The position numbers were made by a program, and so were the translations under genes. From positions 27,173 through 91,172 of IMG/VR virus record IMGVR_UViG_3300031419_000529: 64,000 bases of DNA, one strand, 5' to 3'. The notes beneath the pieces were generated by a model that was not told the DNA's origin, did no database searches, and worked only from the letters and a program-made list of their open reading frames with translations. Below are positions 13,859 to 32,340 of this stretch, in pieces. Origin of the DNA: a virus. Position 1 is the first letter of the stretch. Each line of letters begins with the position of its first letter.

Positions 13859-15457
13859 TTAAACGTTGGCAGAGATGTGGCGAATGCGACCGGCGATGAT
13901 TGCAGGAATAAGCTGGTTCAACGCTGCCGCGCTGATCTTGATGCCTTCGGCGGCCAGATCGGCTTTAACATCATTGATGATCTCCGTGATGCCCATACCT
14001 GCTGGCTTTAATTCTTCAGTGGCCACCGCCGGAGCGCCGCCCAAAGTTTCGGGATACTTGAACGCTGCAGCCGAGTGAAGCGGGGCATTAGCAACAGGCT
14101 CAGGATCTTCAATTGGTGCAGCCTTTGCCGGCAGTAATGCGGCGGCTGCCTGTCGTTCCCGCTCAATACGTTCGTCATCAAGTTTCTTCTGGTTGCTGAT
14201 CCGCTGTTCAATCAGCAGCTTCAGATGCTCGCTGTCGTTCCCAATGAGTTGGTTGATATCGGCAAATAACGGTTTAAACGCCGGTTCAATCACGTCGAAC
14301 AGTTTCAGATTCGCCTGGTACTTATCGCAGATCTGGTTGGCTTCGATTTTTGCGCGTGCCAATTCGTCGTTTGCGGCCCCCTGTAGTGATGTCAGGGTTT
14401 TCTTTCCCTTGATGGCGCTGACAAAGTCCGCAGGGATAATCGGCAGGTGGACGGCACCGAGCTGGACATTTAAAGCACTAATATGTTCATTCAGCGCTGT
14501 CTTGGCCTTGCTGATGATTTCAGCGCGGAGCTCATCTTTACGTGACTTCACCAGCTTTGTGAGTTCCAAGCGTTTGGCGCGCATCGCTTCGCGCAAGGTG
14601 TCGATTGTGCGGAATAGCTCATCAATCTCAACTGTCTGCGACAACGCCTGCTGTTTGATGAGGTCGAGTTCGGACTCAGCCTTGTCGCAGAACTTCACTG
14701 TTTCCTCCGCGTCGGCGAAGTCCTGATCTGTCACGAGGCTAGTATTGATAGATTCAATGAAGGCCAGAGCTTTCCCTTGGTAAACGGTGAGGTTTGACTG
14801 TTTTACTGCGCCTTCAATCTCCACCATCAGTGCTGGCAGTCGCATGATCGATTTGCCCTGCGGTGGTTCTTTCAGCGTACCAGGCTCGTAACCGTCCAGA
14901 TCCTGCTTGAACTGCTGCCAGCCGGCTATCAGTGCATCCGCGCGCCCCGGCACTGGGGTGTACTCCATGGAAGCAAAGTTTTCCTCGGTACCGTCGGAAC
15001 AAACGAAAATTACGCGCTCCGCACCGCTTACCAGCAACTGCTGCTCCAATTGCCAGTAATATTCTGGTGGTAACTCCTGCTGCCGCACGGATTCCGCCAG
15101 GCCGGTATTCCACATTTTATGTTCGAACAGCGTGTCTTCCATCATGGTCATGCCGTCGAAGGAGGCCAACAAACACCCCATGTCATCAATAGCTGTTGCC
15201 GGATAAAGTTCGTCGCCGATCATGCTCTCGACGATGACACGCGCGGTTGCCTCTTGCTGGTGGCCTTTATCGAAAAGGTTGGTTTGCACCCAGTCGCTGA
15301 TCTCCCGTTCGGTACCGGTGGCTTTCATGCTCAGCAGTTCGTCGCGGCGCATTTTGCTGGACGCGGCCATCATTACTGGTGCTTCGCTGGCGGTGAAGTG
15401 TTTGGCACGCAGCGCGTGCCATTCAGCAGAACCCTGCTGTACGTTAATGATTTGCAT
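13859..15457 (-). CDS. YqaJ/lambda-exonuclease family protein
   Basis: QGSAEWHALR..TASEAP, LASFDG, FEHK, YYWQLEQQLLV; adjacent to bet. Confidence 0.92.
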   Translation of the reverse strand: MQIINVQQGSAEWHALRAKHFTASEAPVMMAASSKMRRDELLSMKATGTEREISDWVQTNLFDKGHQQEATARVIVESMIGDELYPATAIDDMGCLLASFDGMTMMEDTLFEHKMWNTGLAESVRQQELPPEYYWQLEQQLLVSGAERVIFVCSDGTEENFASMEYTPVPGRADALIAGWQQFKQDLDGYEPGTLKEPPQGKSIMRLPALMVEIEGAVKQSNLTVYQGKALAFIESINTSLVTDQDFADAEETVKFCDKAESELDLIKQQALSQTVEIDELFRTIDTLREAMRAKRLELTKLVKSRKDELRAEIISKAKTALNEHISALNVQLGAVHLPIIPADFVSAIKGKKTLTSLQGAANDELARAKIEANQICDKYQANLKLFDVIEPAFKPLFADINQLIGNDSEHLKLLIEQRISNQKKLDDERIERERQAAAALLPAKAAPIEDPEPVANAPLHSAAAFKYPETLGGAPAVATEELKPAGMGITEIINDVKADLAAEGIKISAAALNQLIPAIIAGRIRHISANV

Positions 15458-16283
15458 CGATAGGCTCCAATTTACGGATAGCTTCGGTTTGAGCTTCTGA
15501 AAGGATGAATTTGGTGCTGACGGTCGCGATCACGGCATCGGCTTTTTTACTGCCGGATTCGATCATCCTTTGCCAGCCAGGGAGGTTTTGATTGAATTTG
15601 TCAGCTGGGTAATGTGGCAACGTCAACGGCGTTTGGGTTTCTTTGTGGGGCGTCACATCCTTGGCGTCGCTGATATCCAAGGATTTACCTTCCATTTCTT
15701 CAGCCGTAGGCTGCTGGCCGATTTCGGGCCATGCTTTGCGTAGTGCCTGCGCTTCGGCGCATTTCGCTAGCTGGCCATAAGGGCGTTTCTTCCACATAGC
15801 GTTCGGCGCGGAGCTATCACGGCCAGCAGTCGCGTAATTCTCCATCCAGTATTCTTTGGCGCTGAATTCGACGATCTTGCCGTCGGGCATACTCTTGCAA
15901 ACGGTGTACTTGCACCAGGCGGGAAAGGTGATTTCAACGCCATTTAGCGTTTTTGTAATGTCGTCACCAAATTCAGGCTCATTTGCACCCGCATAGCTCC
16001 CTGAGCGATCGGCCTGAATGCGATAAAGGCCGATGCCGGGCATCACTACGTCGCGCCATTCGTTTTTGCCTGATTGGGCATCTTTAACGCTCATCGGTAC
16101 CAAGTGAACCGGCTTCATCAGCGGATCCAACTGACGAGCGATGCAATAGCTGACAGCCATGACAACAGAGTCATCCCGCGCGCCGGGATAAATGGAGTTT
16201 TTCAGCGCGTTCCAGGTAGGCTCATCGATCCCCATGGCCGCGACAGATTGTGGCAAAGTGCCTGTTGTTACCATGTTGCTCAT
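15444..16283 (-). CDS. bet: Phage recombination protein Bet (Red-beta)
   Basis: LDPLMKPVHLVP, GIGLYRIQADRSG, MWKKRPYGQLAKCAEAQALRKAWP. Confidence 0.94.
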   Translation of the reverse strand: MSNMVTTGTLPQSVAAMGIDEPTWNALKNSIYPGARDDSVVMAVSYCIARQLDPLMKPVHLVPMSVKDAQSGKNEWRDVVMPGIGLYRIQADRSGSYAGANEPEFGDDITKTLNGVEITFPAWCKYTVCKSMPDGKIVEFSAKEYWMENYATAGRDSSAPNAMWKKRPYGQLAKCAEAQALRKAWPEIGQQPTAEEMEGKSLDISDAKDVTPHKETQTPLTLPHYPADKFNQNLPGWQRMIESGSKKADAVIATVSTKFILSEAQTEAIRKLEPIDANH

Positions 16284-16438
16284 TGGTCAGCCCTCACGGA
16301 GTTACGGATAGATAAGCGGAAAACGCTGAGAACGACGGCGCAGGCTTTCAACGGATGGCGGCGGTGCTTGAATTGGTGAATATTGTGGCTGCCGATCCGG
16401 TGTTGGTACTGGATCTGTTGGATAGGGTTATGGCTCAT
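16280..16438 (-). CDS. Small 52-aa protein coupled to bet (not in ORF track)
   Basis: GGAG SD; MSHNPIQQIQYQHRIGSHNIHQFKHRRHPLKACAVVLSVFRLSIRNSVRADQ; stop overlaps bet ATG (ATGA). Confidence 0.55.
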   Translation of the reverse strand: MSHNPIQQIQYQHRIGSHNIHQFKHRRHPLKACAVVLSVFRLSIRNSVRADQ

Positions 16439-16446
16439 GGTATTCT
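16418..16446 (+). promoter_or_regulatory. Sigma70 promoter for the antisense sRNA
   Basis: TTGGAT-17 bp-TATTCT with extended TGn. Confidence 0.7.
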
Positions 16447-16452
16447 CCGTGT

Positions 16453-16565
16453 TGATCGGGGGTGGTTCCCCGGTCAGCTAGCTGGTGGCCTTTGGTCATT
16501 GGCCAGTCCTTATGATTTGCGGTTTGGTCGCCGCATTTCGGGATAGCCCCGCTTGCGGGGCTTTT
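16453..16565 (+). ncRNA. Candidate multi-target antisense sRNA (three UGGU-loop hairpins plus terminator)
   Basis: Hairpins 16453-16476 (loop UGGU, two G.U pairs valid only on +), 16486-16505 (UUUGGUCAUU), 16518-16535 (UUUGGUCG); terminator AGCCCCG-CUUG-CGGGGCU-UUU. Confidence 0.7.
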
Positions 16566-16578
16566 CTCGTTTATGGGG

Positions 16579-16911: not shown

Positions 16912-17044
16912 TTATTTACCTAACTTATAATGTTAATTGATATAAATTTAAGTGATACTATTTGCATTAAGGATTTGTTTTCTAGGTGAAAAAACAAATA
17001 ATGGATGTATAATAAAGAAATTAATATTTTAAAGTGATGAAATA

Positions 17045-18424
17045 ATGGACGAGTTAAATATATTAAATAATCTTAATAAATTGCGCAGACTTATTTCTGA
17101 TATAGAGTCTTCAAATGTAGGTAGTAAGAATGACTTGCACTTCGAGGCTAGAGAAAATGTAAAGCAATTGTTAGAGGGGAATGTTTTTATTATTCGTGGA
17201 GCTTTATCCTCTCTCGAATCTAGTAATAAAAGAGTTCTCAAGAATTCTGAGATTGAAGATGTCAAACACACTTTATCGTTTGTGAGTAAAATTTGCTCAG
17301 ATATTAACGATTTAAATGCAAAAAGTCCTTTGTACATAGCCGCTGTAAGAAATAACTTAACTAAAATGGATGAGTTATTAGAGCAAATAAAGCCTATTGT
17401 TAGGTTTTTTGTTACAACAGGCAGTGGGCTAAATGATAGTAGTGCAATGGTCGAGCGAGTTAAAAATACACTAAAAGATGCATCAATTCTCCATCATACA
17501 ATGACGGTAAAACTAGCAAAATTAGATGAGAAAATAGATTCAGCCTCTAAAATAATTGGTGCTTCTTCGGCTAAGTTTGAAAAAATATCAAAAAACTTAG
17601 ATAACCTTGAAGAATCTAATAGCAAATATCAAAAAACAATCTCATTATTGGATTTAGAGTCTGATTTGATTTCTGAAAGGAAAAGTGAGTTAACTGCAGC
17701 ATATGAACTTCTTTCTAGTGTAAAAAAAACATATAGTGAAAATAACGAAACTTTAAAAACTATAGGTGACAACCTATCAAGTTTAGAGAGTAGTGTTAGT
17801 GACATAGAGTCTAGGGCGACAAATGCTAAAAACGATCTTGATAGTAAAACAAGTGAAATTGACTCTATAATTGCACAGGCAGCAGCTGCTTTAGAAACGA
17901 CAACTACTGTATCGGTTGGGACTTTCTTCAAAGAGCAGTATGACATTTCTAAAAACCGCATGTTTATTTGGCCATCTTTTGCACTTGCATTCTTAATTGG
18001 GGCAATATGGATTTGCTATGATACCTTAAGCGATATTCGTCATGGGGTTGTTGATGGTGGAGCTGAACTGCCTTATATAATTGCAAGGTTTTGTATTGCG
18101 CCATTATTCTTATTAGGTGTTTGGTTCTGTACTAATCAGTATATTAAACAAAAAAATATAACTGAAGATTACGCATATAAGAAAGTTTTATCTTTATCAT
18201 TAATTGGCTTCAAGTCCGAGATACAGAAAACTGGCGAGGCCAATACGACAGGATTTATAAAATCACTACTAAAAGAAATCCTTCGCTCTCCTTTGGAAAC
18301 TTTAGATAAAAAGCATTACAAGAGAGAGACAAAACTATTAAAATTAGCGCATGATGAGATGATTTCCAATATGTTTAAAAAAGTGTCTCCGCAAAAGACC
18401 GAAGTTGACGAAGAAAAAAAGTAA
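17045..18424 (+). CDS. AT-rich moron: long coiled coil plus 2 TM helices (candidate defence/exclusion)
   Basis: Opposite strand to operon, low GC, heptads, TM segments IWPSFALAFLIGAIWIC and CIAPLFLLGVWFC; own terminator. Confidence 0.8.
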   Translation: MDELNILNNLNKLRRLISDIESSNVGSKNDLHFEARENVKQLLEGNVFIIRGALSSLESSNKRVLKNSEIEDVKHTLSFVSKICSDINDLNAKSPLYIAAVRNNLTKMDELLEQIKPIVRFFVTTGSGLNDSSAMVERVKNTLKDASILHHTMTVKLAKLDEKIDSASKIIGASSAKFEKISKNLDNLEESNSKYQKTISLLDLESDLISERKSELTAAYELLSSVKKTYSENNETLKTIGDNLSSLESSVSDIESRATNAKNDLDSKTSEIDSIIAQAAAALETTTTVSVGTFFKEQYDISKNRMFIWPSFALAFLIGAIWICYDTLSDIRHGVVDGGAELPYIIARFCIAPLFLLGVWFCTNQYIKQKNITEDYAYKKVLSLSLIGFKSEIQKTGEANTTGFIKSLLKEILRSPLETLDKKHYKRETKLLKLAHDEMISNMFKKVSPQKTEVDEEKK

Positions 18425-18442
18425 CTTAATACTTTTTATCAT

Positions 18443-18474
18443 AAAAAAAGCCACAGCATTGAGCTGTGGCTTTT
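18443..18474. terminator. Bidirectional terminator
   Basis: A7-GCCACAGC-attga-GCTGTGGC-T4. Confidence 0.85.
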
Positions 18475-18486
18475 CTATTAGTGTAA

Positions 18487-18750
18487 TCAAAAGACCCCAT
18501 GGGGTACGCGGCTGCAACCGCGCATTTTCTGGCGGCCGGCGGCGCTGATTTGCCCTGGTGCAAGAAGTTCGCTCTCAACCGTGCGGCGTTTGCGTGGCTT
18601 CGGTGGTGCTGGCATATCCGGCATCGTTTTACAGCGGGTGATCACCAACGTTGTTTTTTCGATACGGTCGCTGCTGCGTTGGATACGCTCTTGAAGTTCA
18701 CGAGCGCGGCGGAGTGTTGCTGATTTTGCTTTTGCTGTAATCATGGTCAT
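18487..18750 (-). CDS. N: Lambda N-like antitermination protein
   Basis: Arg-rich N-term (SATLRRARE); C-term GRQKMRGCSRVP resembles lambda N GRQKIKGKSIP; boxA upstream in pL leader. Confidence 0.7.
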   Translation of the reverse strand: MTMITAKAKSATLRRARELQERIQRSSDRIEKTTLVITRCKTMPDMPAPPKPRKRRTVESELLAPGQISAAGRQKMRGCSRVPHGVF

Positions 18751-18887
18751 TGGTCAGTCCTCGGGTGGTACTTTGTGTCGTGAGCATTTTGGTTATTAAT
18801 GCTTTTTGAATGATTAGGTTACCTGCTTTTTTCCACATCAGGCGAGGTGGTATCTTGGTGTTTCCACACAACCAAGAAGGCAAAACA

Positions 18888-19539: not shown

Positions 19540-19592
19540 AATGTAAGTTTTTCTACAATGAGCGGTCAAGTGATTTTTGTAAGTTTTTCTAC
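19540..19592 (-). promoter_or_regulatory. pL promoter with two OL operators
   Basis: TTGACC-18-TACATT; TGTAAGTTTTTCTAC at 19542 and 19578; same motif at OR. Confidence 0.8.
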
Positions 19593-19626
19593 TTTTCAGG
19601 GCGTGTGAGATCTGAAGGTGGGATGA

Positions 19627-20328: not shown

Positions 20329-21003
20329 CTATATTGGTTTTATATGACAGATTACAGTTCCAATTATACGACAGTTACTATCAAATTTAACAAACCTCAT
20401 TTCTTGAGGGTAGTCAGGGTTTGTTGCCTTTAGATACCCAATGTTGTCTATTAATTGAAATTGCTTAAGTCCAACATTATTAGATGTATTAAATGCTGAT
20501 ATAATATACTGCCCGTTCATTGGAGTGCGAAGTGCTTCATCAACAAAGACTGTGTCGCCCATCTCAAATCGCGGAAGCATGGAATCATCATTAATCTCTA
20601 TCGAAAAAGTATTGTTGCTGCAAGGGACTGGGCAAGGAATATGTTTATCACTTCCTGAGGAAGAAACGGTAGCGCTTTTCGAGTTAACAATAGTTTGCCA
20701 AGTTACATAGGGGACAAGTCGAAGGTCTACCTTGTCACTGAGGGGGGAAGAGCTAATGGCCTTTTCCTCGATAGAACCAACATTGTTTACCAACCACTCC
20801 GCAGAGCACTTGAGCACTTGAATTACTGCCAATAGCACTTTGTCCTTCATGCTTTCTTGGCTGCCATTTTCGATGTTGCTGATCGTTACGCGCGTGAGTT
20901 TCCGCTCGCCTTGCAGCAAGCGATTTATCTCTTTTACGGCCTCCTCTTGAGTCAGACCAAGCTGCTCACGGCGCCATCTAAAACGTTCACCGAGTGTTTT
21001 CAT
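20329..21003 (-). CDS. cI: CI-like repressor (HTH plus S24 domain), lacking the Ala-Gly cleavage site
   Basis: LGLTQEE..TISNIENG HTH; DDSM and GLKQ catalytic motifs; VPYVTWQTIV where VPxxxWVQAG is expected. Confidence 0.92.
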   Translation of the reverse strand: MKTLGERFRWRREQLGLTQEEAVKEINRLLQGERKLTRVTISNIENGSQESMKDKVLLAVIQVLKCSAEWLVNNVGSIEEKAISSSPLSDKVDLRLVPYVTWQTIVNSKSATVSSSGSDKHIPCPVPCSNNTFSIEINDDSMLPRFEMGDTVFVDEALRTPMNGQYIISAFNTSNNVGLKQFQLIDNIGYLKATNPDYPQEMRFVKFDSNCRIIGTVICHIKPI

Positions 21004-21051: not shown

Positions 21052-21080
21052 TTGCTATAAAATGTAGAATAACTTACATT
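21052..21080 (+). promoter_or_regulatory. pR promoter overlapping OR operator
   Basis: TTGCTA-17-TACATT; TGTAGAATAACTTACA is the reverse complement of the OL motif with one mismatch. Confidence 0.8.
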
Positions 21081-21098
21081 TCGAGATTGGAGGTGCCT

Positions 21099-21338: not shown

Positions 21339-21358
21339 CAACGCATAAGGACTGACCA

Positions 21359-21721
21359 ATGACCACAATTTACCAGCCAGGCAATGGAACGGCAGGGGCC
21401 GCGATAGCCTCCGGCGTTCGCCGTGAGCTGCTGTCACGCAAGAAGGTAGGCAAAAACGGCCTACCATTCGCTGCTGTACGCGAAGACCAGATCAAAACGC
21501 GATGGACTGAGAGCGAGGCAGTGACGATCAAAAGTGCTGCCGATGCCATGGCGTCCAACCCCGCAGTTGAAACCAACGTCGCCGCGATCCGGGGCTTTCT
21601 GGCTATGTTCGCTGAAGCCCCTGAGATGTTGGTTCACGTCCACAACGAACTGAAGGCCGCCGGCCTGTCTGTTCCTGAATGGCTGCCACCACTTCCATCA
21701 ACAAAGGAGCTGCCACTATGA
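21359..21721 (+). CDS. cII-position regulator, possibly ribbon-helix-helix
   Basis: Position after cro; IKTRWTESEAVTIKSAADAM RHH-like. Confidence 0.6.
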   Translation: MTTIYQPGNGTAGAAIASGVRRELLSRKKVGKNGLPFAAVREDQIKTRWTESEAVTIKSAADAMASNPAVETNVAAIRGFLAMFAEAPEMLVHVHNELKAAGLSVPEWLPPLPSTKELPL

Positions 21722-22952: not shown

Positions 22953-23442
22953 CCCGGAACAGCTGAACTACGCCATCAGGGCGGCACCGGGACGCAAGTT
23001 TTATCCGTTCCCTGCGCCACCGGACTGGCTGTCCATGGCGAAAGAGCTGATCGACGCCAGACTGCCGACAGTGGATAGCGTGATGGAGGAGTTTGACCGT
23101 TACAGCGCAAGACGGGGCTATTTCGACAGCCCTGAAGAGTTCAGATGGAAAGCGCCGATCTTGTACTGGATTGTCACCGATATGCGCAAGGCTATGCAGC
23201 AGTACAACCATGGCGTTGCTGAGCTGCGAAAAGTGGCAGAGCGGCTGCTCCGTCAGTGGGAAAAGAAACTACAGGATGGGGAGCAAATCCCGGAACCAGC
23301 AATCAGGCTGGGTTACACGGAAACGCCGATAGGTGTTGGAAAAGAACGGGGATTGACCACCCCCGAAACAGAGAAAAAAGGCGCGGCGCTTCTTCAGGCA
23401 ATTCGGCTGAAGGTGGCCCTAGCAAAAACAAGTAAGGACTGA
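22687..23442 (+). CDS. Lambda P-like helicase loader
   Basis: MQRIASS..PQYE, PFPAPPDW, LPTVDSVMEEF, ILYWIVTDMR resemble the P family; GAGG SD. Confidence 0.8.
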   Translation: MRDRNGPKPVTAAAMQRIASSRASPQYEPYRKNTATAAEQKTIQGIVLTVILPMYPIHWPTWVSRMNTTVLMEAFGTELTRVLLQDAINPEQLNYAIRAAPGRKFYPFPAPPDWLSMAKELIDARLPTVDSVMEEFDRYSARRGYFDSPEEFRWKAPILYWIVTDMRKAMQQYNHGVAELRKVAERLLRQWEKKLQDGEQIPEPAIRLGYTETPIGVGKERGLTTPETEKKGAALLQAIRLKVALAKTSKD

Positions 23443-23445
23443 CCA

Positions 23446-24588
23446 ATGACCATTTGTATCAAAAACGCACTGATTTACCGCTTGTCCCGAGGTGTGGATC
23501 TGAGCGGGATGGAAGAGCAACTGGCTGCATTTGCGTTCACGCCATGCGGTAGCCAGGACATGGCAAAAACCGGATGGGTGGCACCAATTGGCGATGCGCT
23601 CGTGCACACCGCCAACGGCCAGCATCTGCTGGTGGTACAGCGCGAAGAGAAACTGCTCCCGCGTGAAGTTATTCAAACCGAGCTGAACGAGAAAGTCGCC
23701 AAACTTGAAGCCGAACAGCATCGGAAACTGAAAAAATCAGAGAAAGACGCTCTCAAAGACGAAGTGCTGCATAGCCTGCTGCCGCGTGCTTTCAGCAAAC
23801 ACCATAAAACACAGATCTGGATTAACGAAGGGGCCGGGTTAATCGTCGTTGACGCCGCCAGTGCCAAACGCGCCGAAGATGCGCTGGCGTTACTGCGCAA
23901 AAGCTTGGGTTCCCTCCCAGTGGTGCCGTTGGCCATGGAAAGCCCGATCGAGCTGACCGTGACCGAATGGGTACGCTCTGGCCAGCCGCCAGCGGGCTTT
24001 ACTCTGCAAGATGAGGCCGAGTTGAAAGCGGTTTTGGAAGAGGGCGGGATCATCCGTTGCAAGAAGCAGGATCTGGTCGGTGATGAAATCGCGTCAAACC
24101 TGCAGGCGGGTAAGTTGGTCACGAAGTTGGCGCTGAGTTGGCAGGATCGAATTGATTTCGTGCTGAGCGATGACGGCACGCTGAAGAAACTGAAATTTAG
24201 CGATGTGCTGCTGGAGCAGAACGACGATATTGATCGGGAGGATTACGCCCAACGCTTTGACGCGGACTTTATTCTGCTGACCGGCGAGCTGGCGGCGTTG
24301 ATTGCCAACCTGGTTGCAGCGCTCGGCGGGGAAGCGAGCCATTCTGCCAATAGCAGCGGTTCAACGGCTAATGAGGATGACGATTCGCTGAATGATGAAC
24401 GTTATCCTGAAGCTGTCCAGTTTGTTCTGGCCAAGGGCAGCGCTTCGATTTCAGGCCTGCAGCGTCAATTCCGCATTGGCTATAACCGCGCTGCGCGGCT
24501 GATAGAGCAGATGGAGGCTGGTGGCGTGCTGTCGGAGCCCGGTGTCGATGGCACACGGACAGTGCTGAGTACAGGGGCCGAGCAATGA
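23446..24588 (+). CDS. rdgC: RdgC fused to an FtsK gamma domain
   Basis: [34 protein letters not shown]; C-term [25 protein letters not shown]. Confidence 0.93.
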
Positions 24589-28993: not shown

Positions 28994-30529
28994 ATGAAAA
29001 ATATAGTGGAAATGTCTTTTGAATGGCAGAACGAGAGTAATGGATTTCCAGCGGATAATCTGGATCGGGCCAAATATGCTAGATTCTTAACGGATTTCTT
29101 GGTTGCTAAAGGCAGTGAAAAAAATTATGTTTTGAATGTAAATGCTTCATGGGGCGCTGGGAAAACATGGTTTTTGAGACGTTGGTCTGAAGAGATTAAA
29201 AAGAATTATCCTGTGGTATTTGTTGATGCATGGAAAAGTGACCATTCAAAAGATCCTTTTTTGTCTGTTGTATCTGCAATTTCTAAAGATCTAGAGCCAT
29301 TAATAGATGTGAGATTTAAAGATAGCGCAATAACGAAAAAAAGCTGGCTATTATTAAAAAGTATAGCCCCCGAAATTACAAAAGGAATTGTGAAAAAATA
29401 TTTGAGCTTAGATATTGATGAGGTATCAAAAGCAATTAATAATAATGATGCATCCTCCATTGCTGGTGTGGGCGCCAAAGCAGTTGAGAAATTAATTAAG
29501 TTTCATGATGAAACTAATAGTTCCATTGATGACTTCAAAGAAGCTACATCAAAATATTTGGATTTAATTGTCAATAAATCAGATAAAGAGTTACCTCTGT
29601 TTGTTTTCATAGATGAATTAGACAGGTGCAGGCCAACTTATGCAATAGAAATGCTTGAAACAATAAAGCATATATTTGATATGGAGAACGTGGTTTTTGT
29701 TATTGCTACTGATAAAGATCAGCTGCAACACTCAATAAAAGCTGTATATGGAAGTGGATTTAACTCAACAAAATATTTGGATCGTTTTTTTGATAGATCA
29801 GTTACTTTGAGAAAAACCTCGCTCTTTGACTACATAAGTAACATGATTTCAAATAGTAATATTTTAACCGATTATTTTAGCAGGTCAGATTGTAGTTGGA
29901 TGATACCAGTTAATAATTTGGATCAAATTTCTGATAGGGTTGAATGGCTTTCAGCAATGTCACAATGTTTTTATATGGATTTAAGAACGACAAAACAATG
30001 GATTGAGCGATTGGAAGCATCAATATTATCCTCGGGTGATCGTATTGATTTTATATTTCTTTCATATTTACTGGCATTAAATAGTGTTAATGGAATCACA
30101 TATGCAAATGTTGCTAACACAACATCAATTATGGGGGCTGACTTCAAAGGTAAATACATTTCTGAATTGTATCGTGACATTGTAAATCCAGATGTTAAAC
30201 TGAATTTTTCTTTTGATTGCTCTGTTTTAGGTGATAAATTAAACATTAAAAACTCAAGTTCATACACCAGAAACCCATTTAAAATCGTAAATTTTTCGTT
30301 AGGTGTTCATGAGTTGTTTTTCAGTCTCCACTGTTGTGTGAATACAATCGACCCACAGAGGGTAATTGATGAGCAATGCTTTTCTTTATCTCAACGCTTA
30401 ATGGAAGGTGGTCAAGATACAAGGATGATTGATATAGGATTGATGCAAGCTGTCATAATGAGGAATAATAATGGGGTGAGTTTCCATGATTATATAGATA
30501 TAGTAGAGCTAGCAATGATATTAGAATGA
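28994..30529 (+). CDS. KAP-family P-loop NTPase
   Basis: NASWGAGKT Walker A; FIDELDRCRPTYAIEMLETIKHIF; YLDRFFD. Confidence 0.92.
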   Translation: MKNIVEMSFEWQNESNGFPADNLDRAKYARFLTDFLVAKGSEKNYVLNVNASWGAGKTWFLRRWSEEIKKNYPVVFVDAWKSDHSKDPFLSVVSAISKDLEPLIDVRFKDSAITKKSWLLLKSIAPEITKGIVKKYLSLDIDEVSKAINNNDASSIAGVGAKAVEKLIKFHDETNSSIDDFKEATSKYLDLIVNKSDKELPLFVFIDELDRCRPTYAIEMLETIKHIFDMENVVFVIATDKDQLQHSIKAVYGSGFNSTKYLDRFFDRSVTLRKTSLFDYISNMISNSNILTDYFSRSDCSWMIPVNNLDQISDRVEWLSAMSQCFYMDLRTTKQWIERLEASILSSGDRIDFIFLSYLLALNSVNGITYANVANTTSIMGADFKGKYISELYRDIVNPDVKLNFSFDCSVLGDKLNIKNSSSYTRNPFKIVNFSLGVHELFFSLHCCVNTIDPQRVIDEQCFSLSQRLMEGGQDTRMIDIGLMQAVIMRNNNGVSFHDYIDIVELAMILE

Positions 30530-30552
30530 GAAACATTAATAAGGACTGACCA

Positions 30553-31365
30553 ATGACCAACGTAATAGAACAACTTATAAAAATGCACGATCCGCGCTGT
30601 GTAAGCGCGGAGTCAATGAATGTAGGCCGCGGGCGAGCTTCCCTGACCAGGGAGCAAATTCTCGGAGCATTCGCAGCCGCGCAGCACCAGCACTCAGTTG
30701 GCCTCGACCTGCTGATGACTAAGTACCGCAGCGACTTCAAGGCGGAGCAGCGGCTACGTGCAGCGATCAATGAATGGGTACATCAACGCCCGCATCCCGA
30801 ACGCGCGGCTGCTGCATGTCAGTTAGCCCTGAGTATTGTGCTTGAGCGTAACCTGCCGGCACAGATATCACACCTCGCGTCATTATTACGCAGGTATGGC
30901 CCACGTACTGCTCAAACCCGAAAGAACATTGAGGCGCTGCAGTCAGAGATTAAGGCTTTAGACAAGCGCCGATGCCAGGTGCAAATCAGCGATACTGTTT
31001 ACGTTGAGGCTGGATTAGAAATTACCGATTTGAATACACGGATTGAGCGGGAACGTGCAGCATTGCGCGCCTGGTCTGAACGCCACGCAGCCACAACCAA
31101 TATTTGCCCACGATGCTCAGGCACTGGCCGTACTGTTAGACCGCACCCGGTAGAGTGCGAAGAGTGTGGTGGTAAAGGTAAGATACCCGCCAATATGGAA
31201 CACTTGCGTAACTCTATGCGTATCATAGGGGCCGAGGTAGCTCCCGGGAAGTGGGTTACTGAATATATCTCATTGGTTGGAGCTTGTATCAACTGGCTGT
31301 ATTGTAAAGAGGAGCAAGCAGGTAAGTGCATAAAAAACAGGATTATAAGCGAATTATACGACTGA
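30553..31365 (+). CDS. Q: Q-like late antiterminator (TIGR02642-type zinc finger)
   Basis: LIKMHDPRCVS N-term; CPRCSGTG..CEECGGKG; just upstream of lysis. Confidence 0.75.
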   Translation: MTNVIEQLIKMHDPRCVSAESMNVGRGRASLTREQILGAFAAAQHQHSVGLDLLMTKYRSDFKAEQRLRAAINEWVHQRPHPERAAAACQLALSIVLERNLPAQISHLASLLRRYGPRTAQTRKNIEALQSEIKALDKRRCQVQISDTVYVEAGLEITDLNTRIERERAALRAWSERHAATTNICPRCSGTGRTVRPHPVECEECGGKGKIPANMEHLRNSMRIIGAEVAPGKWVTEYISLVGACINWLYCKEEQAGKCIKNRIISELYD

Positions 31366-31926: not shown

Positions 31927-31952
31927 TATTACCAATTCATCGATGTTAGGAG

Positions 31953-32025
31953 TTGCTTATAGTTCTATAACGCGCTAAATTTCCGAAAGATGCCGGAGTA
32001 TGCTTAAAGCTACTTCGGCTTTTTT
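31953..32025 (+). promoter_or_regulatory. Late promoter/pause/terminator unit 1
   Basis: TTGCTT-17(..CGCGC)-TAAATT, AAAGAT, hairpin GCCGGAGTA/TACTTCGGC plus T6. Confidence 0.8.
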
Positions 32026-32038
32026 ATTGGTCAGTCCT

Positions 32039-32071
32039 AAGCCTGCATGGTTCGCCCAGCAGGCTTTTTTT
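32039..32071 (+). terminator. Second terminator in late leader
   Basis: AAGCCTGC..GCAGGCTT plus T tract. Confidence 0.8.
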
Positions 32072-32097
32072 ATTCCCCCAAGCAGGGGAGGTGGAGT

Positions 32098-32340
32098 ATG
32101 AAAATGCAGGAGAAAGCAAGCCTCGCGGCCTACCTCTCTTCAGGGTTTCTTGTGCTGGTGGGGAAGGTGGGGAAATTACTTAACGATCTCACTCTGAACG
32201 ATTGGGCGATCGTCATCGGTATCATCATCGGTATCGCGACGTTTGCCGCAAACCTGTACTTCCAGAATCGCCAGACACGAGCTATTGAACGCGCCTCACG
32301 CGCCGGCGCCACAATCATTAACCCGGGGCGTGCCAAATGA
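32098..32340 (+). CDS. Holin with Met-Lys-Met dual start
   Basis: GGAG SD; ATGAAAATG; LTLNDWAIVIGIIIGIATFAANLYFQ. Confidence 0.85.
   Translation: MKMQEKASLAAYLSSGFLVLVGKVGKLLNDLTLNDWAIVIGIIIGIATFAANLYFQNRQTRAIERASRAGATIINPGRAK

Follow-up and report, generated by a model that had tools for sequence, protein, structure and literature searches.

Our analysis suggests that a lambda-like prophage of the Serratia type contains the gene for a regulatory small RNA (about 115 nt), antisense to its early-left operon, that probably represses all of the early genes carrying a common sequence tag at their start sites. The DNA analyzed (hereafter the window, 64,000 nt) is one part of a 91-kb provirus record. 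On the comparative evidence, this RNA and the leader RNA of the late promoter would address a barcode on the starts of the N-position and cII-position genes, the recombination genes, and Q. To our knowledge, the targets of previously described phage antisense RNAs are either a single locus or host genes, and full-text literature searches, both on the motif and on phage RNAs with multiple targets, turned up no published description. If true, this reading would add a post-transcriptional layer to the lambdoid lysis-lysogeny circuit and a testable function for the long-known, uncharacterized IsrB class of prophage RNAs. It would also provide a concrete explanation to test for the start-associated sequence (SAS) boxes, which have been without a known partner since 2011, and a route to cross-immunity between heteroimmune relatives.

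The window has a lambdoid gene layout throughout, with holin, endolysin, and spanin genes downstream of the Q-like antiterminator (Table 1). Around the small RNA, the genes between 7880 and 16911 are all encoded on the minus strand. GenBank phage records contain neither a near nor a distant DNA match.

Table 1. Features of the small RNA locus, the tagged starts, and the related RNAs (window coordinates unless a locus is named).
Feature	Coordinates	Strand	Details
RecE-like gene	13859-15457	-	
recT/bet (RecT/Bet-like) gene	15444-16283	-	
Tag at bet/RecT-like start, variant GAGGGCTGACCAATGAG	16279..16295	-	Motif ATG 16283; duplex -32.1 kcal/mol
Conserved 52-aa gene	16280..16438	-	SD and ATG overlap small RNA promoter; stop overlaps bet ATG
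Putative sigma-70 promoter	16418..16446	+	TTGGAT 16418-16423, 17-nt spacer, TATTCT 16441-16446, extended -10 TGg
Predicted small RNA, about 115 nt	16453..16568	+	Fold, covariation, strand test
Hairpin 1	16453-16476	+	Loop UGGU
Hairpin 2 (long)	16477-16507	+	
Anti-tag core UGGUCAUUGGCCAGUCCUUAUG	16493..16514	+	Complementary to start regions of five genes
Further copy of 17-nt motif	from 16495	-	Motif ATG 16499
Single-stranded linker CCUUAU	16508-16513	+	Free in fold
Hairpin 3	16514-16539	+	Loop UUUGGUCG
Terminator module	16540-16568	+	
Intrinsic terminator	16545..16572	+	AGCCCCG-CUUG-CGGGGCU at 16545-16562, then UUUUCUCGUUU
Tag at start of 87-aa Arg-rich N-position gene	18746..18762	-	Motif ATG 18750; duplex -31.0 kcal/mol
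CI-like gene	20329-21003	-	
Tag at start of 120-aa cII-position gene	21347..21363	+	Motif ATG 21359; duplex -36.0 kcal/mol
Replication initiator	starts 21900	+	
Tag at rdgC-like start	23434..23450	+	Motif ATG 23446; duplex -33.0 kcal/mol
RdgC-like gene	starts 23446	+	
Tag at Q-like antiterminator start	30541..30557	+	Motif ATG 30553; duplex -34.1 kcal/mol
Q-like antiterminator gene	starts 30553	+	phrog_127, E 4e-9
Late-promoter leader	31952..32073	+	TTGCTT-17-TAAATT, hairpin with U6, anti-tag, terminator hairpin with AUGGUUCGCCCA loop
Second anti-tag copy UUAUUGGUCAGUCCUA	32022-32039	+	Unpaired in the fold, between U6 hairpin and terminator hairpin
Second-lineage IsrB-like RNA	L287:4533-4662		5' seed mirrors tag GAGGCAAGACCAATG
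Second-lineage IsrB-like RNA	L255:9245-9375		5' seed mirrors tag GAGGCAAGACCAATG
Second-lineage IsrB-like RNA	L250:5480-5630		5' seed mirrors tag GAGGCAAGACCAATG

An earlier note on this DNA had described a complete transcription unit with a promoter, three hairpins with UGGU(C) loops, and a CUUG-loop terminator, and all of these elements are present at the positions given in Table 1. The putative promoter matches 7 of 12 consensus positions in addition to its extended -10, and a consensus promoter/terminator scan left it uncalled. Its -10 has the form TAT..T in all 29 homologues (TATTCT, TATACT, TATGCT, TATAAT, or TATGAT); on the minus strand, this invariant element falls within an SD-ATG spacer. 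We infer that transcription starts near 16453. The terminator was the best-ranked plus-strand candidate of the scan and has a U tract on the plus strand only; it is an orphan, since the neighboring genes are all on the minus strand and there is no plus-strand gene upstream. The predicted fold is -61.1 kcal/mol on the plus strand (z -5.3) and -42.2 kcal/mol on the minus strand (z -3.8). Hairpin 2 sequesters most of the anti-tag in the minimum-energy fold, and the linker and the loops alone are free. Four public RNA runs (5-8% of sampled words) contain contigs of relatives at 90-95% identity, without strand or ends, and one RNA-Seq contig spans 16470-16899 of the window but does not itself show strand, ends, or level. 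We regard the existence of the small RNA as highly probable.

To assess conservation, relatives were gathered by a Bet protein search combined with a motif search. At least 29 related proviruses, from Serratia, Yersinia, Pectobacterium, Brenneria, and Symbiopectobacterium, have the RNA upstream of their recT/bet-recE module, and the RNA region upstream of bet can be aligned in 29 distinct sequences at 73-99% identity. The closest genome match is from Serratia quinivorans (97.7% identity). RNAalifold analysis of 22 distinct homologues proposed 37 pairs, in which 98.7% of the cells are paired and 14 pairs show changes on both sides; none of 500 shuffles reached the observed pairing values, and control pairs with partners slid by 1-3 columns were 29-51% paired. 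Read on the minus strand, the same pairs are only 78.3% paired, and because of the 164 G.U cells, the structure is strand-specific as well as conserved. The assignment to the plus strand, which had been made from wobble pairs and the U tract, is thus upheld. The terminator stem itself covaries, and its G.U pairs suit the plus strand only.

Seven diverse homologues adopt the same four-hairpin fold (z -5 to -7.5), and the loops of hairpins 1 and 3 read UUGGUC or UUUGGUC in all homologues. The anti-tag core is nearly invariant across homologues, and CGGGAUAGCCCCG is invariant. In hairpin 2, the 3' arm is frozen and variation is restricted to the 5' side. The comparative evidence therefore bears out the proposal of a conserved, structured RNA unit specific to the plus strand. 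A model built from the RNA (R1) was searched against 151 genomes of the order, one of them the query genome; the other genomes gave only terminator-driven matches (about 25 bits). In a set of 33 Serratia species genomes, the model found the RNA only in one that was already known. A pattern scan of genome contigs gave 44 matches, of which about a quarter are true and come from Enterobacterales; the remainder are chance matches in high-GC bacteria.

The functional proposal rests on what the core is complementary to. The tag, (A/G)AGGACUGACCAAUGACCA, is 17-22 nt long and runs from the SD across the spacer and the AUG through the second codon; within the RNA, the 3' arm of hairpin 2 holds the anti-AUG and anti-spacer portion and the linker holds the anti-SD portion. 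The 22-nt core pairs with one mismatch to 21344-21365, two to 30538-30559, and three to 23431-23452, and shuffled controls of the core gave zero matches. The previously reported counts of 21/22 for the cII-position gene, 21/22 for Q, and 19/20 for rdgC hold, those for Q and rdgC in shifted registers. The 17-nt motif occurs in the window at the five tagged starts and from 16495 on the minus strand, each time with a co-oriented ATG (Table 1), against 0.23 occurrences expected by chance. Duplexes of the core with the five tagged starts (-31 to -36 kcal/mol) are the top 5 of 149 ORF starts, for which the median is -13.8 kcal/mol (sd 5.2). Energies calculated with the full-length RNA did not discriminate the targets, whereas the core-only calculation did. 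Pairing of the core with its targets is interrupted by one C.A mismatch in the window itself and by two mismatches in a close Serratia relative.

These results agree with the earlier claim that the core mirrors a start-site tag common to the N-position gene, the cII-position gene, rdgC, Q, and bet. The identification of the 87-aa gene as "N" found no such backing, as family searches gave no match. An upstream GACCAAACC box at the cro-cII junction was considered as a conserved target feature and rejected, as it belongs to the end of one cro allele; the exact GACCAA of the box is present in two of five phages and a one-base variant in a third.

The tag behaves as a phage-private cassette. In its 17-nt form, AGGACTGACCAATGACC, it is confined to gene starts and, in the genomes checked, to prophages with the RNA. 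Allowing up to 3 mismatches, there are 7 copies in the window's own record and 8-10 in each of four near-complete relatives, and a reversed control pattern had 0 copies. Every copy that bears an ATG opens a real gene. The tagged genes number five here and 6-9 in the relatives; they form orthologous sets (cII-position gene, rdgC, Q, N-position gene, and bet) plus others that vary among relatives. Flanking sequences are unrelated up to the edges of the tag, where similarity begins and ends sharply. Four host genomes (about 5 Mb each) have their tag copies, counted at up to 1 mismatch, exclusively within 10-18 kb around the RNA gene. The exact 19-mer tag occurs in 33 IMG/VR contigs, 29 of which have the RNA as well; the remaining four are incomplete fragments (5-70% completeness). 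Conversely, 52 loci with a related, more distant bet gene gave no blastn match to the RNA region and contained 0 tags in 314 kb.

A second lineage shows that seed and tag change together. A search for GAGGCAAGACC with an ATG within 8 nt downstream found several proviruses that carry this tag at 3-5 places each, mostly at gene starts. Proviruses with the tag GAGGCAAGACCAATG encode an IsrB-like RNA that scores 30-33 bits with the Rfam isrB model (RF01386) and 17-20 bits with model R1. In this RNA, the 5' part consists of CAUUGGUCUUGCCUC, the exact mirror of its own tag, and downstream of this seed come two UUUGGUC-loop hairpins and a terminator. Between the lineages, the tag has CAA vs ACU here and the seed has UUG vs AGU here, while the GACCAAUG and UUGGUC parts are the same in both. 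Because this matching change is hard to explain otherwise, it suggests that the RNA and several unlinked start sites pair. The RNA and the tag thus both co-occur and change together. Because the tags vary so little within the present lineage, covariation of seed and target can be seen only in the comparison between lineages; within-lineage compensation was considered and rejected, as seed variants of the Yersinia group are mismatched to targets that keep the consensus tag. One tag copy of the second lineage, GACCAAAATG, has a longer spacer.

The earlier note needs correcting in one respect, as the small RNA is not the only RNA with an anti-tag: the leader of the late promoter has an independent second copy (Table 1). 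This leader lies between Q and the lysis genes, which is the pR' leader position. In four relatives, it is 79-89% identical and its seed is invariant. Sharing the seed, the leader RNA probably has the same tag as its target. In relatives, a portion of the leader (about 31970-32027) is found again at other places of the late regions. The mechanically called holin ORF (32047-32340) starts at 32047, inside the leader terminator hairpin and without an SD; relatives indicate a downstream holin start after GGGGAGGTGGAG(T/C)ATG, at about 32095.

The locus thus has the features of a trans-acting anti-RBS RNA, namely a strand-specific structure with a terminator and a conserved SD/AUG seed that co-changes across lineages. 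Judging from these sequence comparisons, we lean toward repression of the tag set in trans by the small RNA. In such a mechanism, the UUGGUC loops (the complement of GACCAA) and the anti-SD linker would make the first contact with the tag, and pairing would then extend across the SD and AUG. This would block ribosome binding on all tagged mRNAs at once, and the duplex would probably also invite RNase cleavage of these mRNAs. The 5' arm of hairpin 2 may serve as an internal mimic of the target. The leftward early transcripts, which are a perfect complement, should titrate the RNA after induction. More tentatively, the two anti-tag RNAs and the tagged genes could make up a private "tag and anti-tag" translational regulon, in which both RNAs read a barcode at the starts of Q and of the leading genes of the early modules, an RNA-based immunity layer that is titrated by leftward transcription on induction. 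If so, the layer would also silence superinfecting relatives, because the tag is common to Serratia, Yersinia, Pectobacterium, and Brenneria relatives, some of which have a diverged immunity region. Such a system would also account for the IsrB-type RNAs of other lineages and, possibly, for boxes of the SAS type.

Other explanations have to be weighed against repression in trans, beginning with the minus strand. In 17 of 22 homologues, this strand has a tag copy with an ATG and an ORF of 6-23 codons, and minus-strand RNA folds better than shuffles (see above). These observations are compatible with an element that works on the minus strand only, either as the RBS of a leader mini-ORF with translational coupling to the 52-aa gene and bet or as an mRNA processing structure. 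Against it stand the G.U cells, the incomplete minus-strand pairing, and the U tract that follows the terminator on the plus strand alone. The mini-ORF is also poorly maintained: depending on the homologue, it has 23, 17, 6-8, or 0 codons, relatives that are 98% identical differ in it by a 1-nt indel, and in five sequences its ATG is changed to ATA. We therefore consider a minus-strand element extremely unlikely, and a role solely as the RBS of the 23-aa ORF, which the earlier note had raised as an alternative, is ruled out by the lack of conservation of that ORF. The ATA variant corresponds to a C-to-U change in the plus-strand RNA, which keeps a G.U pair with the target AUG at the loss of the start codon.

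The RNA could instead regulate only in cis, as an antisense of the overlapping leftward transcript with the small gene, recT, and recE, which is the mode of action presumed for IsrB; complementarity in trans would then be a by-product of a locus that holds one more copy of a tag with some other purpose. The RNA promoter does overlap the start region of the 52-aa gene, the RNA is perfectly complementary to the pL transcript, and IsrB is itself antisense immediately upstream of recE (PMC2330248). Moreover, the 20 kb upstream of two IsrB loci contain no complementary site of at least 10 nt, apart from IsrB itself and terminator-like strings. We nonetheless think a purely cis-acting role unlikely. 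The ATG-to-ATA change preserves pairing to the target AUG yet disables the local start, lineages that differ in the seed differ correspondingly in multiple distant tags, the anti-tag copy in the late leader has no antisense partner, and tag and RNA co-occur tightly.

Alternatively, the tag may be a protein or ribosome binding site or a translational enhancer, similar to SAS, in which case the anti-tag RNAs would be decoys, sponges, or irrelevant. The tag does contain UAAGGA, which matches the 3' end of 16S rRNA, and its first two codons are fixed. The factor for the SAS box also remains unidentified (PMC3203893). A tag-binding protein, however, would not bind the complement, and it is the complement of the tag, not a copy, that the RNAs carry; the loop motif UUGGUC is likewise complementary to GACCAA of the tag. 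This explanation is thus very improbable. Type I toxin function of the 52-aa gene was also considered and rejected, as the protein is basic, unlike a typical hydrophobic toxin, and its coding part is free of overlap with the RNA.

An Rfam search of the window, one of the checks named in the earlier note, returned no match at gathering thresholds. The isrB model (RF01386) scores the RNA at 16.4 bits (E 1.1), relative to a gathering score of 35, and eight loci with homologues of the RNA yielded no match to this model even when E values up to 10 were allowed. Weak matches to BjrC68, F6, and asX2 were discarded because they rest on the terminator. Even so, the statement that no relative has been described does not stand, as Salmonella IsrB has the same position and orientation. 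IsrB-1 (Gifsy-2) and IsrB-2 (Gifsy-1) are terminator-defined RNAs of 88-94 nt, antisense between sbcA (recE) and its neighbor (PMC2330248), and IsrB is associated with ProQ, with a "likely role in lysogeny maintenance" (PMC5391140). In Enterobacteriaceae genomes, IsrB loci have the RNA antisense and immediately upstream of a recE-like gene. The order here is recE, recT/bet, the 52-aa gene, and then the RNA on the opposite strand, so that like IsrB, it is an antisense RNA with an orphan terminator in the early-left operon beside a recE/recT module (arrangement <- -> <-). In both, a CUUUGGUCGG-loop hairpin precedes CGGG..GCCC and the terminator, and alignment to the IsrB model shows a shared 3' module of a (C)UUUGGUCG(G)-loop hairpin and terminator. 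Model R1 weakly matches three of seven loci with above-threshold RF01386, at the same site (11-17 bits). Unlike IsrB, the RNA here is about 115 nt long, has two extra hairpins and a 22-nt anti-tag, and is below the family threshold; a search of the 20 kb around IsrB found no comparable set of tags. From these comparisons, our reading is that the present RNA is an enlarged, distant relative of IsrB, with an intermediate, the Providencia-type RNA, that scores 30-33 bits with RF01386.

The SAS of Cluster K mycobacteriophages is an RBS motif of at least 13 nt that occurs on many non-structural genes and is nearly absent from hosts (PMC3203893). Both SAS and the tag are private, asymmetric motifs at the RBS of different gene families, with single odd-orientation copies off gene starts. 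SAS differs in host phylum and in sequence and has no identified partner, whereas a complementary structured RNA is found here.

The P1/P7 c4 and P4 CI immunity RNAs are structured, with segments, thought to be in loops, that are complementary to mRNA RBS (PMC12197685). The RNA here likewise presents complementary segments to phage RBS regions, but c4 acts on one operon (ant), and both c4 and CI are processed from a sense transcript, unlike the present RNA. P4 CI acts on sites within its own transcript. The C4 covariance model (RF01695) gave no match in the window. A Brenneria-type provirus has a genuine C4 (L123:585-673; RF01695, 68 bits) about 7.7 kb from its anti-tag RNA; therefore, both RNA systems can coexist in one phage.

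As predicted short, terminated transcripts that would act by pairing, the anti-tag RNAs also resemble the lambda pR' leader RNA 6S/StxS (PMC7547250), P22 sar and sas, and lambda OOP, and the second anti-tag copy occupies the exact pR' leader position of 6S/StxS. The targets of these RNAs are a single phage locus or host mRNAs, in contrast to the shared tag here. We know of none among 6S/StxS, sar, sas, and OOP that addresses a tag common to several phage genes. In T4, RegA and RegB are each a single factor that shuts off many early mRNAs at their start regions (PMC3014915); those factors are proteins, while the factor proposed here is an RNA.

Several other features of the prophage were observed. 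An AT-rich insert on the opposite strand (16912-18480) splits the early-left operon between the 87-aa and 110-aa genes; its gene (17045-18424, plus strand) encodes a 459-aa coiled-coil/TM-like protein and has its own promoter-like sites and terminator. Within 19540-19595 and 21055-21085, the box TGTAAGTTTTTCTAC occurs twice upstream of the leftward early genes, and an inverted, related box, TGTAGAATAACTTACA, lies between the CI-like and cro-position genes; these boxes are probably the OL and OR operators. Immediately upstream of the Q-like gene, 28994-30529 encodes a KAP-family P-loop NTPase (Pfam E 9e-43), a possible defense-type moron.
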